DNA of 64,000 nt from sequence record MT446392.1. One strand, written 5' to 3'. Below, piece after piece: positions 19,783-50,639 of the stretch (positions are counted from its first letter, which is position 1; each line of letters begins with the position of its first letter). Below the pieces are notes generated by a model. That model had not been told where the DNA came from. It made no database searches and was given only the letters and a program-made list of their open reading frames with translations. The DNA comes from Escherichia virus TH15. Made by a program: the position numbers and the translations under genes.

Positions 19783-20469
19783 ATGAACGGTCCTAAAACT
19801 TTTAATAGTCAAGCTCGTGCAGTTGGTGGTTTTGCACATAACGTACAAAATGACCAAATCAAAAATGAACCAATGTTCTTTAACTGTGATTTGAGTTTTG
19901 CTTGGGATAATGGTGGTCCAATCACTCGTAGCTTTATTGCCAATCTCCCAATTGATTGGACTAATCAACATGTTGTGTTTGATTCACGTGCGCATATGTT
20001 AATGCCAGGTTGGTATCCAGCTATCCCTGGCTATCATCATGATGATGTTCCTCGTCCACCCATTCCAACAGGACAACATTTTATTACTGCAGGACAACCT
20101 GATTATGACAATCCTCGCTATTTGTCTGAACACATTCTTGGTCTTGTTAACGCTGATGTGTGCCCTACCCATTTTGCTACAGGCGAAGCCACCTTTAGTG
20201 AAATCCCAGAAGGTGAACTGATTTATCGCCAATGGCATAAAGAAGTTCTGGCTAAAATTGAATCAGGTGAATTAGAGCAATGGGAAGCTCCTGACCGCAC
20301 ACTCCTGCAGTTTAATTGTCATACCTGGCATACTGGTTCCCAGACAGTGCGCAATGGCTGGCGTTGGTTTGGTCGTGTATCTCGTAACACTGACCGTGTT
20401 AAAAATATTACCAATGAAATCCGCGTTAATGCCCAAGTATATCTGGAATTCCCTATGGAGGGATGGTAA
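19783..20469 (+). CDS. hypothetical protein
   Basis: 228-aa ORF with SD gaggaaaa. Confidence 0.5.
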   Translation: MNGPKTFNSQARAVGGFAHNVQNDQIKNEPMFFNCDLSFAWDNGGPITRSFIANLPIDWTNQHVVFDSRAHMLMPGWYPAIPGYHHDDVPRPPIPTGQHFITAGQPDYDNPRYLSEHILGLVNADVCPTHFATGEATFSEIPEGELIYRQWHKEVLAKIESGELEQWEAPDRTLLQFNCHTWHTGSQTVRNGWRWFGRVSRNTDRVKNITNEIRVNAQVYLEFPMEGW

Positions 20470-21044
20470 TGATGTATGAACCCGGTTGCATGGGTGATAT
20501 GAAAGGTCCACAAGGATGTGCAGGTATTCCAGTTCCAAGAGATGAATTTATGATTACCAAAAGATATTGGGCAAACCTTGATGATGGTGATGAAGGAATC
20601 AAGGTGGAAAACGTTGATTGGTCGCACTGTAACCGTCATATGAAAGAGCTTTTGATTGAGGAATATAAAATGAAGCACATCGTTAAAGGTTGGCAACCAG
20701 AACCACATAAAGAACAAACACCTGACCCATTGATTTGTTATAGTGAAAAATATGGTTTTCGTACATGGAGCGATGAATATGACAAGTTGGTGTGCTCCAG
20801 GTTCTATGTTTGGATGGGAATACTATTTTTTCCAATCCTGTGGTTTTTCCTGACAACGAAAAATGACTTGCCAATTTGCGTATTCGGGGCAGCAGTATCT
20901 GCGGCCATTGCAGGTATTATCGCATCATTTTTGTGGACCTCTGTTATTGAAGTACCTTTTCGTATTTCTAAAGTTAAAAAGGTATATGACAATATCACAA
21001 AGAAAAATACATTAAACTCTTTTATTGAGGAATGTCGTAAATGA
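20463..21044 (+). CDS. membrane protein, C-terminal FIEECRK motif
   Basis: 193 aa; two C-terminal hydrophobic segments; tail matches the FIxEC family at 15930-17158; stop overlaps next ATG. Confidence 0.5.
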   Translation: MVMMYEPGCMGDMKGPQGCAGIPVPRDEFMITKRYWANLDDGDEGIKVENVDWSHCNRHMKELLIEEYKMKHIVKGWQPEPHKEQTPDPLICYSEKYGFRTWSDEYDKLVCSRFYVWMGILFFPILWFFLTTKNDLPICVFGAAVSAAIAGIIASFLWTSVIEVPFRISKVKKVYDNITKKNTLNSFIEECRK

Positions 21045-21277
21045 GTATTGCAATTTATATTAAATCAGAGTCATGTGATTCTTACCTGTATTCCTATGAT
21101 AAAGGTACGCCCGAAGTTGAAATCAAAGATGATTTAGAAATTGACCTGGACTTGTTCCGCCCGATTTCTGAATACAGAGTTCAAACTTCTAGTAGTGAAT
21201 CGCCATCAACAGAAACACGTATTGAAATTATTATGGCCGAAATCTTTAAAAAATCTTGGGAACGTGATGATGAGTAA
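21041..21277 (+). CDS. hypothetical acidic small protein
   Basis: 78-aa ORF translationally coupled on both sides. Confidence 0.45.
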   Translation: MSIAIYIKSESCDSYLYSYDKGTPEVEIKDDLEIDLDLFRPISEYRVQTSSSESPSTETRIEIIMAEIFKKSWERDDE

Positions 21278-21728
21278 GAAAAACGTGGTGAAAGAATTAT
21301 CTGCTGGCATTATTTTCATGACTGAAGATAAAGAGTTATTCATGGGTCGTGTGACTGGTTCTCGCAAACCGGGTATGCCTGCACATAAATGGGATATCCC
21401 TAAGGGTCATGTTGAAGCCGGCGAATCCCCGATTGAAGCGGCTATGCGTGAATGTGAAGAAGAAACAGGCTTTACCCAGTATGACCCGGCATTCTTAAAA
21501 GACCTAGGCGAGTTCCGTTATTCAGATAACAAAAACCTTCACCTGTTTTTGTACACGGTCCCGGTCGAGCATGAGCAATTCAGACATAGTAAATGCTCCG
21601 CATATCATACATTCCCGGATGGTAGTTCGGTCCCAGAGTTTGATGCATTTGCTCTGATTAAACCGAGTCAATGGCAATACGTAATGGGTAAATCGATGTA
21701 TAAGGTTTTGACTCAAATTTTCGGATAA
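21267..21728 (+). CDS. nudE: Nudix hydrolase NudE
   Basis: Start at Met 43 of ORF 21141..21728; Nudix box GHVEAGESPIEAAMRECEEETGF; lies immediately upstream of e as T4 nudE (e.1). Confidence 0.75.
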   Translation: MMSKKNVVKELSAGIIFMTEDKELFMGRVTGSRKPGMPAHKWDIPKGHVEAGESPIEAAMRECEEETGFTQYDPAFLKDLGEFRYSDNKNLHLFLYTVPVEHEQFRHSKCSAYHTFPDGSSVPEFDAFALIKPSQWQYVMGKSMYKVLTQIFG

Positions 21729-21739
21729 TAAATACACAT

Positions 21740-22495
21740 ATGAATTATCTAAAAATATATGAATCTTTAATAGTATCTGCTATTAAAAGACCTCTTACAC
21801 AAGGATACACCGAAAAACATCATATTTTACCGAAATCGATGGGTGGTAATGATTCTATTGATAATTTAGTTACCCTTACCGCCCGTGAACATTTTATTGC
21901 ACACTTATTATTGGCAAGAATTTTTAAGAATCGCGAAATGTGGTCCGCTGCATATATGATGGCTTCAACAAGTCTAACTAACTCGGATAGACATAGATGC
22001 TCGTCACATTTATATGAATTATTGCGTAAACAAGCGTCGGTATATAATTCAGGTGAAAATTCTCCAAATTGGGGAATAAAACGTTCTGAAGAAACACGAT
22101 TAAAAATGTCAATTTCAAAAATGGGTATCAGGAATCCAATGTACGGTATTCCACAATGTTTGGAACACTCTCATAAAATTAGCCTTGGTGTTACCGAAGC
22201 TTTTAAAAATCCAGAAATGAAAGAACGCCACCGTCAAAGTGTTTCTGGAGAGAATAATGGGTTTTATGGAAAAAAACATTCCGAAAAAAGTTTGGAAAAA
22301 CAGCGGAATACAAAACGGAAAGGATTTCCTTGGGACAATTATTTGGAATTGTACCCAATTTGGGTTTCATTAAATTGCCCCAAGCATCCAACATTCACAA
22401 ATGAACTTGTTAAATTGGGATACCCCAAAAAGAAGCTTGTTCGAATAGTGGAAGAGTTTAAAAATGAATATATTCGAAATGCTACGCATAGATGA
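21740..22495 (+). CDS. HNH homing endonuclease
   Basis: 251 aa; N-terminal [11 protein letters not shown]...[20 protein letters not shown] is the typical HNH core; NUMOD-like basic repeats at the C-terminus; overlaps start of e by 32 nt. Confidence 0.7.
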
Positions 22496-22952
22496 AGGTT
22501 GTAAATTAGATTTGTATAAAGATACCGAGGGGTACTATACCATTGGTATCGGGCAACTGATAACTAAGAACCCATCGAAAGATGTTGCTCGTGCCGAGCT
22601 CGACAAGCTCATGGGTCGCGTCTGTAATGGTCGCATAACCCAGCACGAAGCTGAAACATTGTTTAACCGTTCGGTCGAAAAAGCTAAAGCCGGAATATTG
22701 AGGCATCCTGTCTTAAAACCTGTTTATGATGTACTGGATGAAGTTCGTCGTTGTGCACTCATTAATATGGTATTCCAGATGGGTGTTGCCGGGGTTGCTG
22801 GTTTTCCTAAGGGACTGCGATTGCTCAAGGCCAAATCGTGGGAAGCTGCTGCTAAGGAACTGGCGGACTCAAGATGGTATAAAGTCCAGACTCCAAACCG
22901 GGCCAAACGAGTTATTGAAACTTTCCGTACTGGAACTTTTGACGCTTATTAG
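22464..22952 (+). CDS. e: endolysin (T4 lysozyme homologue, gene e)
   Basis: 162 aa; [12 protein letters not shown]...[11 protein letters not shown]...[13 protein letters not shown]...[13 protein letters not shown] closely parallels T4 lysozyme. Confidence 0.9.
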
Positions 22953-22989
22953 TTTACATCTCCAAACGATAGGGTTATAATGACCCTAT
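22952..22989 (+). promoter_or_regulatory. early promoter cassette: -35 GTTTAC, -10 TATAAT bracketed by inverted repeat ATAGGGT/ACCCTAT
   Basis: 18-nt spacer; 7-bp inverted repeat around the -10; leader ATCAACTACGGAG. Confidence 0.55.
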
Positions 22990-23007
22990 CAACTACGGAG
23001 AACAAAC

Positions 23008-23424
23008 ATGACTCGCATTAATTTAACCCTGGTATCTGAACTTGCTGACCAACACCTTATGGCTGAATACCGCGAGCTTCCTCGCGTGTTTGGTGCTGTT
23101 CGTAAGCATGTGCAAAATGGTAAAAAGGTGTCTGACTTTAAAATCCCATCATCTTTTCTTTTAGGAACTGGTCATGTCACCTTCTTTTATGATAAGCTTT
23201 TGTTCCTTAAAAACCGTCATCAAGAACTTATTGCTGAATGTTTAAAGCGAGGGTTTAATATAAAAGATATTTCTACCCAAGATTTAAATGATATTCCTGA
23301 TGAATGGAAGAATGATTATCAACCATCAATCTGGTCAATTGAAATCAGTCAATCCAGACTGAATGAGAAAATTTCTCAAAAGCCTACCTGGTACAAATAC
23401 TATGGGAAAGCTGTGTACGCTTAA
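23008..23424 (+). CDS. denV: endonuclease V (pyrimidine dimer DNA glycosylase) DenV
   Basis: 138 aa; [34 protein letters not shown]... closely parallels T4 DenV, same length. Confidence 0.9.
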
Positions 23425-46441: not shown

Positions 46442-46701
46442 GACTTTATGATTTTAATGAAGCGGGACTTGAACATATCCGCGAATGTGATGTGGTTGAC
46501 GATGATAACCAACCGAATACGATTAAGTATTGGTTTGAAGCCATTACTGACCGGGAAACCGGCCAACTTATCAAAGTCTATGTAGTCACTGATTGGGCTG
46601 TAGAATTTAGCTTTAATGTAATGGAAGATGATACTCCAGAGACATTAATTCATATGGCTGAATCATGTATCAAGGATGCTTATTACGATGAAGACTTTTA
46701 A
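46438..46701 (+). CDS. hypothetical acidic small protein
   Basis: 87-aa ORF between genes 47 and 46. Confidence 0.45.
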   Translation: MRLYDFNEAGLEHIRECDVVDDDNQPNTIKYWFEAITDRETGQLIKVYVVTDWAVEFSFNVMEDDTPETLIHMAESCIKDAYYDEDF

Positions 46702-48370
46702 GCTAAAGAAAGTTATCTATAAAAATATCATGTCAGTTGGAGCGCAAGCAATTACGGTTCAACTTGATAAAGTCCAGAAAACTCTGGTGACCGGTAAGAA
46801 CGGTGCAGGTAAATCAACCTTCCTTGAAGCCGTTACATTTGCATTGTTTGGTAAGCCTTTTCGTGATGTTAAGAAAGGGCAGTTGATTAACTCGAGCAAC
46901 AAAAAAGATATGCTCGTTGAATTGTGGATGGAATATGATGGAAAAGAATACTATATCAAGCGTGGGCAAAAACCCAATGTTTTTGAAATCTCTTGTGGCG
47001 GTGAACGTCTTGATGAATCTGCCAGCAGTAAAGACTTCCAAGCAGAATTTGAACAGCTTATCGGAATGTCATACGCCAGTTTCAAACAGATTGTCGTGCT
47101 CGGCACAGCTGGATATACCCCTTTCATGGGCCTATCCACTCCTGCAAGAAGAAAACTTGTCGAAGACCTGTTAGAGGTTTCTGTACTGGCGGATATGGAT
47201 AAGCTGAACAAATCTCTTATCCGTGAAGTCAACAGTCAAATCCAGGTGATTGATGTTCAGCATGATGGTGTTGTGCAACAGATTAAAATCTACCAGGACA
47301 ACGTTGAAAAGCAGAAAAAATTATCAGGTGATAATCTGCTGCGGTTGCAAACGATGTATGATGATTTGGCTTCAGAAGCTCGTGATATCAAATCAACGAT
47401 TGATGAAGCAACGACAAGATTGACCGAGATTATTTTGGGCGAAGACCCTGAACAGGAACTGACGAAAGTCAAGCAAGAATCGTTCCTGATTAAATCGAAA
47501 ATCGATAGCTTCCGTAAAGTAATCGGTTTGTACGAGAAAGGCGGTTGTTGCCAAACGTGTTTGAGTCAATTGTCGCCAGGAGACTCCATAGTCCCCAGGA
47601 TTGAGACAAAGATTGAAGAGTATAATCGTGAGTCTGATAGCCATAAAGCTCTCCAGGCCTCCATTCAGGAGCGATTTGATGCGTACGCTGAAGCAAGACA
47701 AAACCAACGTACAATAGCTCAAGAGATTCAAACTAAGAAACAAACATTAATCCAGACTGTGGATAAAGCTAAAAAGGTTAAGACGTTAATTGAACAAGCT
47801 AAGTCTGAATTCATTGACCATGCCGATGATATTAAAACGCTTCAAGACCAGCTTGATAAAATAGTCAAACAGAAATCTGACCTTGTTATGGAAAAATATC
47901 AACGTGGTATCTTAACTGATATGTTGAAAGATTCTGGAATCAAAGGCGCGATTATTAAGAAATATATTCCTATCTTTAATAAGCAAATTAATGCTTATCT
48001 GAAAGTTATGGAAGCTGATTATAGTTTTACGCTTGATGAAGAATTCAACGAAACAATTAAATCTCGTGGGCGTGAAGACTTTAGCTATGCATCATTTAGC
48101 CAGGGTGAAAAAGCTCGTATCGATATTGCATTGTTGTTTACATGGCGTGATATTGCTGCGAAAGTATCTGGTGTGCAAATTAGTACGTTGATTCTGGATG
48201 AGGTCATGGATTCAGCCACTGACGCCGAAGGCATCAAAGCTATCCAGGCAATTATCAATAAATTAGAAGGTCAAAACGTGTTTATCATTAGCCATCGTGA
48301 ACACGACCCAGAAGCATATGGGCAGCATCTTCAAATGAAAAAAGTTGGTCGATTTACTGTTCTGGAATGA
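46688..48370 (+). CDS. 46: recombination nuclease ATPase subunit gp46 (Rad50/SbcC-like)
   Basis: Start at Met 5 of ORF 46676..48370 gives 560 aa as in T4 gp46; Walker A GKNGAGKST; closely parallels T4 gp46. Confidence 0.9.
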   Translation: MKTFKLKKVIYKNIMSVGAQAITVQLDKVQKTLVTGKNGAGKSTFLEAVTFALFGKPFRDVKKGQLINSSNKKDMLVELWMEYDGKEYYIKRGQKPNVFEISCGGERLDESASSKDFQAEFEQLIGMSYASFKQIVVLGTAGYTPFMGLSTPARRKLVEDLLEVSVLADMDKLNKSLIREVNSQIQVIDVQHDGVVQQIKIYQDNVEKQKKLSGDNLLRLQTMYDDLASEARDIKSTIDEATTRLTEIILGEDPEQELTKVKQESFLIKSKIDSFRKVIGLYEKGGCCQTCLSQLSPGDSIVPRIETKIEEYNRESDSHKALQASIQERFDAYAEARQNQRTIAQEIQTKKQTLIQTVDKAKKVKTLIEQAKSEFIDHADDIKTLQDQLDKIVKQKSDLVMEKYQRGILTDMLKDSGIKGAIIKKYIPIFNKQINAYLKVMEADYSFTLDEEFNETIKSRGREDFSYASFSQGEKARIDIALLFTWRDIAAKVSGVQISTLILDEVMDSATDAEGIKAIQAIINKLEGQNVFIISHREHDPEAYGQHLQMKKVGRFTVLE

Positions 48371-48375
48371 GCCTC

Positions 48376-49092
48376 TTATTGAGGCTTCATTTTGCAGTTA
48401 TCAAAATGCCAACGTTTCATATTAGCTGGTGTACCGACTACATTACAGTGTGGACACTGAATTTTGGGGTCCACCTTTTTCTTCCGGTTTGGATTGGATT
48501 TGCAGAATTGTCGGTGAGTGGATATAACACACTTTTTACCTTCAATACCACAAAATTCACAAGTTAAAATTTCATGTTTAGCTTGTTTTAATCCTACTGA
48601 AATTTTTTGCTTTCGTTCTTCTGAAATAGTATGAACAACCTTGTTTGGACCTTTGGAACAGTTATCAAAATGCCAACGATTCATATTGCCAACGAGACCG
48701 GTTTTTCCACAATGTGGACATTCAACTCTCGGTTTTAATTTGGCAGATTCTGACATTTTCTTTCTGGTTTCATCGGAGAAAATTTTATTTTGTTGAGCTT
48801 CCAAGTTTTTACGACGAAGCCATCCAAATAATTTGTTTTTGCTTCTGTCGGTGTTTGGTGCAGAAACTGTCATCATGCGTGCGGCATAGACCAAAGAAGC
48901 ATTATTTGGATGCATTTTGACCAACAGTTGATGACAAACGAAATGTTCCTCGGGAGTTAAATCAACAAGATTTGAAGCGTCGTCTGCCCCACCCATACAA
49001 CGGGGTATAATGTGATGACTTTCAGAGTATGTGGTTAATTTGCGATTCAATGCTCTGCTAATAAGCTTTTGGTAAATGATGTTATAATTCAT
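48376..49092 (-). CDS. HNH homing endonuclease with repeated C-terminal zinc-finger-like motifs
   Basis: Start at Met 68 of minus ORF 48376..49293: MNYNIIYQKLISRA...ESHHIIPRCMGG is the typical HNH start; three CPHCG...NMxRWHFDNC-type repeats follow. Confidence 0.7.
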   Translation of the reverse strand: MNYNIIYQKLISRALNRKLTTYSESHHIIPRCMGGADDASNLVDLTPEEHFVCHQLLVKMHPNNASLVYAARMMTVSAPNTDRSKNKLFGWLRRKNLEAQQNKIFSDETRKKMSESAKLKPRVECPHCGKTGLVGNMNRWHFDNCSKGPNKVVHTISEERKQKISVGLKQAKHEILTCEFCGIEGKKCVISTHRQFCKSNPNRKKKVDPKIQCPHCNVVGTPANMKRWHFDNCKMKPQ

Positions 49093-49329: not shown

Positions 49330-49755
49330 TTGAATAGAGAGAATATTATGAACAACGTAACTGCTAAAGATATCCAAGTTAAAACCATCCGCACCGACGC
49401 TAACCCACATAACCAAAACCGCATCCGTAAATCCTGGGTCCTGGCATGTGATGAAGTATCTGCCACCCGTCTGAAATCACTTCCTCAAGAAGTTAAATTT
49501 ATGTTGTATGGTGTTATTGATACTGATGTATCTGATAAGTGGATTGAACTGATGCAACGTCATTACACCGAATCTCTGGCAGCTGGTGCTAAACTGGTTA
49601 TCGACCGTGACGGCTCCGAACGTCTAGAAGATGATTACTGTGTTGACTTCGATGACCACCTGGTCCAAGCTGGTTCTATTATTGCTGCGCAACTTCCAGA
49701 GTATATTGAATCTCTTCCGGAAGCTATCCGCAAACAAATGGCAGTTGTTGCGTGA
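49330..49755 (+). CDS. hypothetical protein (position corresponds to T4 rpbA/45.2)
   Basis: 141-aa ORF upstream of the gene 45 cluster. Confidence 0.4.
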   Translation: MNRENIMNNVTAKDIQVKTIRTDANPHNQNRIRKSWVLACDEVSATRLKSLPQEVKFMLYGVIDTDVSDKWIELMQRHYTESLAAGAKLVIDRDGSERLEDDYCVDFDDHLVQAGSIIAAQLPEYIESLPEAIRKQMAVVA

Positions 49756-50639
49756 ATTTGATTTATAAAATAACCTTTATAACAAGGGAACAAAATAACG
49801 AATTCCCTTGTTATTATATTGGTTCAAAGGTTGATGCGACATTTAACGGTCAAAATATTCTCGACAAAAATAATAAAATTTATACAGGTTCTCCGAATTC
49901 AAAATACACTAAGCTGTATAATGAATTGATTGATAGAGGTGACTATATTGTTACTATCATTGGAGAAACAAAGCAGGACCCAAGAAAAATAGAAAATATT
50001 TTTCAAATGTCAGTTAAAGCTGTAACCAATGAGAAGTACTTTAATAAAACGTATGCTCACGACCAAAGCCGGTATGATGCTCCTGGATATGCTCCATACC
50101 GAAACTTGAAAACAGGTAAAGTCGTTAAATTGCATCCATCTGAACTTACATCTGATTATGTTGGTGTTCGTAAAGACTGCTCAATTTCGGATAAGCACAT
50201 TCAAGCAATTAAAGACTTTCAAAAAGAATATTGGACTGCCGAAGCTCGACAAGCAAGGTCTATTGAAGTCAAAAATCGTTATAAAGATGCCGAGTATGCT
50301 TTAAAATTCAAAGTTATAATGAATACATCTGAAGTATACGAAAAATATTTAAAATCAATTACTGAATATTGGAATAATTCAGATAATAGAATAAAGGCTT
50401 CAAAACGAGCAACTGAAAGAAATGCTAGTCCTGAGTTTAAAGAAAAATTTAGGAAATCCAAAGCAAGGGGAACCTGGTTGCAGTATGAAGATGAACTTAA
50501 AACATTGTGGAATGCTTTAGGTCAACCGGGGTATATTAAGTTTAGAAAACACGCCATTGAACATGGGTTTAATGATGAAAATTATCAGGGTGCAATCCGG
50601 TCCTGGTCAAATTATTATGTTAATAGGAAAATGAAATGA
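49752..50639 (+). CDS. GIY-YIG homing endonuclease (Seg-like)
   Basis: 295 aa; N-terminal LIYKITFITREQNNEFPCYYIGSK is a GIY-(13 aa)-YIG module; lysine-rich repeats follow. Confidence 0.6.
   Translation: MNLIYKITFITREQNNEFPCYYIGSKVDATFNGQNILDKNNKIYTGSPNSKYTKLYNELIDRGDYIVTIIGETKQDPRKIENIFQMSVKAVTNEKYFNKTYAHDQSRYDAPGYAPYRNLKTGKVVKLHPSELTSDYVGVRKDCSISDKHIQAIKDFQKEYWTAEARQARSIEVKNRYKDAEYALKFKVIMNTSEVYEKYLKSITEYWNNSDNRIKASKRATERNASPEFKEKFRKSKARGTWLQYEDELKTLWNALGQPGYIKFRKHAIEHGFNDENYQGAIRSWSNYYVNRKMK

Follow-up and report, generated by a model that had tools for sequence, protein, structure and literature searches.

Among T4-like phages, homing endonucleases of the free-standing kind are familiar, so that another such element is in itself expected. 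In the intronless homing described for MobE of T4 and Aeh1 and for SegG of T4, the endonuclease gene is intergenic and adjoins its presumed conserved target, the cut and insertion sites are separate and the intervening host sequence is co-converted, and signals of the host gene that are embedded in the endonuclease gene favor its retention (PMC2988022). The locus described here, between the genes nudE and e of Escherichia virus TH15, resembles these systems in each respect. It differs in that the target gene is nrdB or gene 32 in the MobE and SegG systems and would be the lysozyme gene e here, and in that the embedded signals are promoters in those systems and a translation start in ours, where activity is deduced from sequence comparison. 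Precedents exist for nearly every feature of the locus, namely the lack of an own promoter, overlap with a neighbor, displacement of host signals, and co-conversion (PMC2988022), and our search of the literature found no description of this particular element.

The closest named relative of the endonuclease is MobD of T4, which the review of Edgell (2010) gives as an uncharacterized free-standing HNH endonuclease, "ND, target unknown" (PMC2988022). The two proteins agree in carrying the HNH motif at the N terminus, a middle part of the NUMOD3 type, and KLGYPK in the C-terminal region, and neither gene has an obvious promoter or Shine–Dalgarno sequence of its own. T4 mobD lies between nrdC.11 and mobD.1 rather than between nudE and e, and it runs 17 nt into nrdC.11, likewise overlapping its neighbor. 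For MobD that review names no target, whereas here co-conversion allows one to be predicted.

The leader of gene e provides the other point of comparison. The hairpin in the T4 gene e leader reportedly goes back to the work of McPheeters et al. in 1986. In early read-through transcripts of T4 this hairpin forms and lysozyme translation is reduced ~100-fold, and late transcripts, which start inside the hairpin, are translated (PMC3014915). Similar e leaders have been predicted in related phages (PMC3014915, PMC2988022). At the same locus, endonuclease-free relatives have retained this arrangement, with the late promoter within the 5′ arm and the Shine–Dalgarno sequence hidden by the hairpin on early transcripts, whereas TH15 has lost the loop, the right arm, and the Shine–Dalgarno sequence and has no equivalent structure. 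Based on the comparison of genomes, we consider it likely that a MobD-like, free-standing HNH homing endonuclease of the T4 Mob family has homed into the nudE–e junction.

We analyzed a stretch of 64,000 nt of TH15 DNA (record MT446392.1), hereafter the window, to which all coordinates refer unless another record is named. The closest record is phage VR7 (Gaprivervirus), whose flanks are 97.9% identical and whose gene order matches. The upstream neighbor, nudE (21267..21728, plus strand; Pfam NUDIX 2.2e-16), encodes a Nudix hydrolase, agrees in length and position with the annotated nudE of VR7, and differs from it at 4 of the last 300 nt. Its TAA stop lies 11 nt 5′ of the ATG of the endonuclease gene (21740..22495, plus strand), which encodes 251 aa in the ORF listing. 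Gene e (22464..22952, plus strand; Pfam Phage_lysozyme 5.9e-12) encodes a T4-type lysozyme of 162 aa, and denV (23008..23424; Pfam Pyr_excise 9.7e-16) lies downstream of it. From the coordinates of the two ORFs it follows that 22464..22495 (plus strand) is common to both, and within these 32 nt the endonuclease frame, with its final 10 codons and its TGA stop, differs from that of e codons 1–11. The product of e aligns from its first residue, M1, with T4 lysozyme and with the e products of VR7 and JS98. These results bear out the sequence-only reading, according to which the endonuclease ORF stops 32 nt inside e and the start of e, an ATG at 22464, falls within endonuclease coding sequence. 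In the spacer between e and denV, 22953..22981 (plus strand) holds a near-consensus sigma-70-type promoter, TTTACA-17-TATAAT, with 11/12 matches, which is probably an early promoter for denV.

The ORF had been read as an HNH homing endonuclease, and Pfam, PHROG 655, and full-length homology to MobD agree on this assignment. The catalytic HNH motif lies at 21806..21904 (plus strand; aa 23–55), where Pfam HNH matches aa 23–46 with 21.6 bits against a curated cut-off of 21.4 bits, and residues H27, H28, N42, H51, and H55 are invariant in a three-way alignment that includes T4 MobD. Pfam NUMOD3 matches in three stretches (2.2e-13); the best-scoring of these DNA-binding repeats is at 22235..22306 (plus strand; aa 166–189), and the remaining ones lie upstream, within aa ~104–155. 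PHROG 655, "homing endonuclease," matches aa 1–246 at 1.2e-54. T4 MobD is 38.5% identical over residues 1–247 by tblastn (E 6e-37) and 42% identical over its full length in a MAFFT alignment. In the overlap the C-terminal tails of the two proteins share just two residues (Y244 and R246), a likeness that we do not regard as meaningful. A tblastn search of 50,697 phage records yielded a sole close relative, in phage 04086 (Dhakavirus; 90% amino acid identity), and nothing else above 42% identity; a scan of IMG/VR proteins returned relatives that are just 31–38% identical and none closer. A sequence search of the PDB gave only short matches to the generic HNH motif, the best of them to a group II intron maturase (6me0, E 0.004), in its HNH domain.

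Over 241 codons, comparison with the 88%-identical copy of phage 04086 gives a dN/dS of 0.10 (dS 0.53, dN 0.053), from which it follows that the endonuclease protein is under purifying selection. Together with the Pfam, PHROG 655, and MobD matches, this value rules out a chance reading frame at 21740..22495. The HNH motif with its conserved histidine and asparagine residues places the protein in the HNH (beta-beta-alpha-metal) superfamily by sequence motif. The full-length homology, the N-terminal HNH motif, and the DNA-binding NUMOD3 repeats place it with the T4 Mob-type proteins of PHROG 655, and its gene shows their characteristic setting, since it stands free between conserved genes and is present or absent among relatives. 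By homology it is MobD-like and belongs to a well-known class, the free-standing homing endonucleases of phages.

The nudE–e junction of related phages speaks for an insertion. In megablast comparisons about 30 Gapriverviruses have flanks that are 90–98% identical and lack the ~730 nt, and no record spans 80% or more of a 2.5-kb query. In VR7 the stop of nudE is separated from the e ATG by a 26-nt spacer, TAATAAATACCCCTATATAAGGGGGTATT-ATG, and the endonuclease gene is likewise missing from the nudE–e junctions of JS98, VR5, IME540, NC-G, and T4. Judged from this comparison, nudE/e is an endonuclease site that is unoccupied in T4. The GC content of the insert is 34.5%, compared with 43% in nudE and 45% in e.

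Contig look-ups for seven protein-cluster variants yielded 13 carrier loci in two genera (the window/L015, L016, L017, 04086, and L018–L025), and in all 13 the endonuclease gene stands between nudE and e with an intact ORF. We distinguish type G (the window, which equals L015, with L016 and L017) from type D (04086 and L018–L025). The insertion begins exactly 5 nt after the late-promoter motif. At the 5′ junction the window reads CACAT (21735..21739, plus strand), a mutated remnant of the left hairpin arm CCCCT; in L017 the left arm is intact (AATAAATA-CCCCT-ATG), L016 has CCCAT, and the type D copies in Dhakavirus have TATAAATA-CCCGT-ATG. The corresponding sequence of VR7 is CCCCTATATAAGGGGG. 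At the 3′ junction homology to relatives starts again at the e ATG. From these positions it follows that the endonuclease gene has replaced the hairpin loop, the right arm with the Shine–Dalgarno sequence, and the spacer.

Lacking a stop codon of its own, the endonuclease ORF terminates at an out-of-frame TGA in e, at e nt 30–32 in the window and at nt 27–29 in the type D copies, in which the I9L substitution of the e product brings the stop one codon forward and shortens the overlap to 29 nt. Because the gene lacks its own stop and was inserted flush against the e start codon, the overlap is a by-product of insertion. The earlier proposal that the endonuclease invaded the nudE–e junction thus stands, although it rests on the comparison of relatives, the GC content, and the cassette described below and not on the overlap itself. 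Among the relatives compared we found no case of the same overlap without endonuclease homology.

The carrier loci share more than the endonuclease gene. Within type G this gene is 99.2–99.4% identical at the nucleotide level, and e nt 1–84 show just 0–1 differences; yet the last 300 nt of nudE in the window are 9–10% different from those of L016 and L017, which differ from each other by ~6%, and the window and L016 differ by 8% across e nt 85–480. Within type D the endonuclease gene is 100% identical and e nt 1–84 again show 0–1 differences, against flanks that are 2.5–7% apart. The first 84 nt of e (22464..22547, plus strand) thus accompany the endonuclease gene within each type as a co-converted tract (Poisson P 3e-21 to 2e-24), next to flanks that are 3–10% apart. 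Across the 808-nt cassette formed by the endonuclease gene and these 84 nt, on backgrounds with a divergence of 5–8%, we count 0–7 differences versus 44–68 expected from the divergence of the flanks (Poisson P 3e-18 to 2e-24). Read from these comparisons, the near-identity of the cassette is the co-conversion footprint of recent homing, and such co-conversion of flanking host markers places the gene among homing endonuclease genes.

Comparison with relatives points in the same direction. Between the window and VR7 there are 9 differences among the 84 positions of e nt 1–84, versus 2.3% in the flanks (P 2e-4), and among 749 matching phage records none is more than 91% identical to the first 100 nt of e in the window. 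The e gene of phage 04086 is chimeric: its first 17 nt encode MNIFEM, which is cassette-like, and Dhakavirus sequence follows, whereas e of the Dhakavirus relatives of this phage starts MDIFDM. On the upstream side background-specific polymorphisms return within ~32 nt of the endonuclease ATG, and the converted tract is thus asymmetric, with e as the side into which it extends. Asymmetric conversion fits free-standing endonucleases, whose cut site lies in the neighboring gene, away from the insertion site (PMC2988022). The locus offers a natural record of intronless homing, in which one cassette with a sharply defined edge of co-conversion recurs in two genera and on at least six backgrounds.

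Other recombination has also left traces in e. In L017 the e allele shifts from Gaprivervirus to Dhakavirus/T4-like after nt ~220, which marks a recombination junction in the lysozyme gene (L017 3445..3698). UPEC01 (L012 2256..2460), TH22, and TH57 are ~95% identical to the window overall and 82% identical in e nt 1–100, with a patch of divergence at about nt 52–200 of e, which suggests a separate recombination history for the 5′ part of e in these phages. Since they lack the endonuclease, ordinary recombination is active here too.

The co-converted side of the cassette contains a candidate for the target. When e nt 1–150 were compared between seven carriers and seven non-carriers, nt 72, 74, and 75 (22535, 22537, and 22538) were the sole positions that separate all carriers from all non-carriers. 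Carriers have TAC TAT where non-carriers have T(A/T)T TGG, a W25Y change, and the three positions fall within 6 consecutive nt that do not vary among the non-carriers. The predicted target and immunity core is 22529..22540 (plus strand), which reads GAG GGG TAC TAT in the window and GAA GGY TWT TGG in endonuclease-free phages. The inferred site of recognition or cleavage takes in GAAGGTTATTGGAC, at codons 22–26 beside the catalytic T26, and TAC TAT would confer immunity. In a mixed infection the enzyme would cut or nick an endonuclease-free e ~65–85 nt into the gene, around this sequence; recombinational repair off the carrier genome would then copy the endonuclease gene together with the stretch between insertion site and cut, and the TAC TAT (W25Y) allele would protect carrier genomes. 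The two gene types represent only two independent lineages, so that TAC TAT could also be inheritance from an ancestral cassette and not the result of selection for immunity. Lysozyme codons 24–25 provide a testable prediction of target and immunity for an enzyme of the Mob family, whose prototype MobD has none assigned.

In one Dhakavirus genome, IME540 (L013, MT150133; 1501..1600), the endonuclease gene is absent and the e hairpin is intact, yet codons 24–25 read TAC TAT, an allele that is otherwise confined to carriers. It may be a resistant non-carrier genome or may belong to the lineage where type D first settled. We also looked for an operator in the style of I-TevI, that is, a copy of the predicted target over the endonuclease promoter, and rejected it, since the best match (13/20) was equalled by 72 of 200 shuffled sequences.

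Of the alternatives to homing, the one that survives best holds that the endonuclease is an inactive or decaying relic and that the identity of the cassette reflects ordinary homologous recombination or a recent sweep. The activity of T4 MobD itself has never been shown (PMC2988022), the 5′ region of e is mosaic even in endonuclease-free genomes, and one NCBI genome annotates just a 118-aa C-terminal piece (P0005), all of which would fit this view. Against it stand an ORF that is intact in every carrier locus, the low dN/dS, the conservation of the catalytic histidine and asparagine residues, cassette edges that are sharply drawn and fall at matching positions on independent backgrounds of both genera, and diagnostic substitutions that are clustered in 4 nt. 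We therefore consider this explanation improbable and favor homing by an active enzyme.

The insertion also changed the leader of e. The endonuclease-free junctions of T4, JS98, VR5, IME540, NC-G, VR7, UPEC01, P896, and P479 share one architecture, in which the nudE stop is followed by (T/A/G)ATAAATA, a hairpin with the Shine–Dalgarno sequence as its right arm, and the ATG. The predicted hairpins fold with −14.9 kcal/mol in T4, −16.8 in JS98, and −16.9 in VR7 (z −2.7 to −3.6). In these three phages the Shine–Dalgarno sequence is sequestered and the late promoter lies in the 5′ arm; neither is the case in the window, which keeps only the promoter motif and the mutated left arm. In place of the right arm and the Shine–Dalgarno sequence there is a new, weak initiation region for e at 22450..22463 (plus strand; GGAAGAGTTTAAAA), within the endonuclease coding sequence. 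Its predicted pairing with the anti-Shine–Dalgarno sequence is −3.3 kcal/mol, compared with −12.6 in VR7 and −11.6 in JS98, and opening it costs ~7 kcal/mol, compared with 14–17 in the native early transcript. The e initiation region of the window has no significant local structure (−8.2 kcal/mol, z −0.02).

We considered and rejected three further ideas about structure at the two start sites. A replacement hairpin over the e start is absent from the window (see the z score above), and that of 04086 (−13.6 kcal/mol, z −2.5) involves different pairings, so that none is conserved. A hairpin hiding the endonuclease start folds with −6.5 kcal/mol in the window (z −2.0) and −1.9 in 04086 (z +1.2), and it is not conserved either. 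Finally, the substitutions in the 5′ end of e do not act as a compensatory opening, since the cost of 7.02 kcal/mol is hardly altered, at 7.12, when the e 5′ end of VR7 is put in their place.

What remains of the module is the T4-type late-promoter motif at 21727..21734 (plus strand; AATAAATA), 5 nt 5′ of the endonuclease ATG. The equivalent motif is TATAAATA in T4, JS98, IME540, and 04086 and AATAAATA in VR7 and VR5, and in endonuclease-free relatives it serves gene e. In T4-type late promoters the motif occupies −13..−6, and in relatives an A frequently stands in place of its first T (PMC1524935). As 5 nt separate the motif from the ATG in 13 of 13 carrier loci, this consensus rule predicts +1 at the A of the endonuclease AUG. 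No other (A/T)ATAAATA motif occurs within 20400..23100, and consensus scans between the endonuclease start and e found no sigma-70 promoter, MotA-type promoter, or terminator above chance. With the sole late motif upstream of the endonuclease, late e transcripts should start there and pass through the endonuclease gene. The late e mRNA would be a two-gene transcript of endonuclease and e that starts at or next to the A of the AUG, and from it the endonuclease would be translated at best as a leaderless message. The endonuclease start has no Shine–Dalgarno sequence (−3.3 and +0.6 kcal/mol). In carriers it lies 11–14 nt past the nudE stop, a distance over which reinitiation has been considered for mob and seg genes (PMC2988022), and on early read-through RNA the endonuclease could at most weakly reinitiate after that stop. 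Translation of lysozyme would now depend on an initiation site that is weak and unstructured and lies in endonuclease coding sequence, and it would be free of early repression by a hairpin.

It is plausible from this arrangement that endonuclease expression is coupled to late lysozyme transcription, as first suggested by the overlap. A clearer effect than coupling, as predicted from the junctions, is that lysozyme is deprived of its own regulatory module. A more far-reaching version, in which lysis control has been rewired, would combine a leaderless late endonuclease mRNA, loss of the ~100-fold early repression of lysozyme, an e start that is weak and possibly coupled to translation of the endonuclease, and an endonuclease gene whose loss would abolish lysozyme expression; we offer this version tentatively and regard it as rather unlikely in its entirety. 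The locus also means that a textbook regulatory element, the gene e hairpin, can be overwritten without loss of viability, so that its purpose becomes a question that can be asked.

The dependence of e on the inserted gene raises the possibility that the element is kept mainly for the lysozyme initiation region and late leader, or for the exclusion of competitor phages, with homing being secondary. Gene e has its only initiation region within the endonuclease ORF and its only late motif upstream of that ORF, and since both are tied to the endonuclease in this way, a simple deletion would cripple e; embedded signals that favor retention have moreover been described for segG and gene 32 (PMC2988022). 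A role in lysozyme expression would not, however, need an intact HNH and NUMOD3 protein under selection (dN/dS 0.10), although competitor exclusion would need one, and endonuclease-free relatives manage with a stronger, regulated initiation site. We find retention for such reasons, in place of homing, decidedly improbable. Hardly credible is the view that the endonuclease is ancestral at the nudE–e junction and was deleted in most relatives without there being any invader, for, although one site in two genera would accord with it, each deletion must have precisely rebuilt the promoter-plus-hairpin module conserved in T4, Dhakavirus, and Gaprivervirus, and the view leaves unexplained the low GC content of the insert, a gene that is 88–100% identical between genomes with far more diverged flanks, and the chimeric e of phage 04086.

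Insertion by homing at nudE/e, which we prefer, concerns one of several endonuclease-like genes in the window. A second Mob-like HNH gene (48379..49092, minus strand) matches PHROG 655 at 2.7e-68, is 39% identical to the nudE/e endonuclease over 140 aa, contains repeated CPHC...WHFDNC zinc-ribbon-like motifs, and lies antisense directly after a gene 46-like SMC/AAA gene (46676..48370). An ORF at 49752..50639 (plus strand), whose product starts MNLIYKITF...YYIGSK, matches PHROG 7504, "homing endonuclease," at 6.4e-15 and has no Pfam match. It may be a GIY-YIG/seg-like gene, and if so the window holds at least three homing-endonuclease-like genes.

The locus also reveals gaps in annotation. In phage 04086 (L002, OR842557; 2500..5000) nudE, the endonuclease gene, e, and denV are all unannotated, and the record of one NCBI genome (171,591 bp) is confined to the C-terminal 118 aa of the endonuclease. 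On type D carrier contigs, gene callers place the start of e at Met6.
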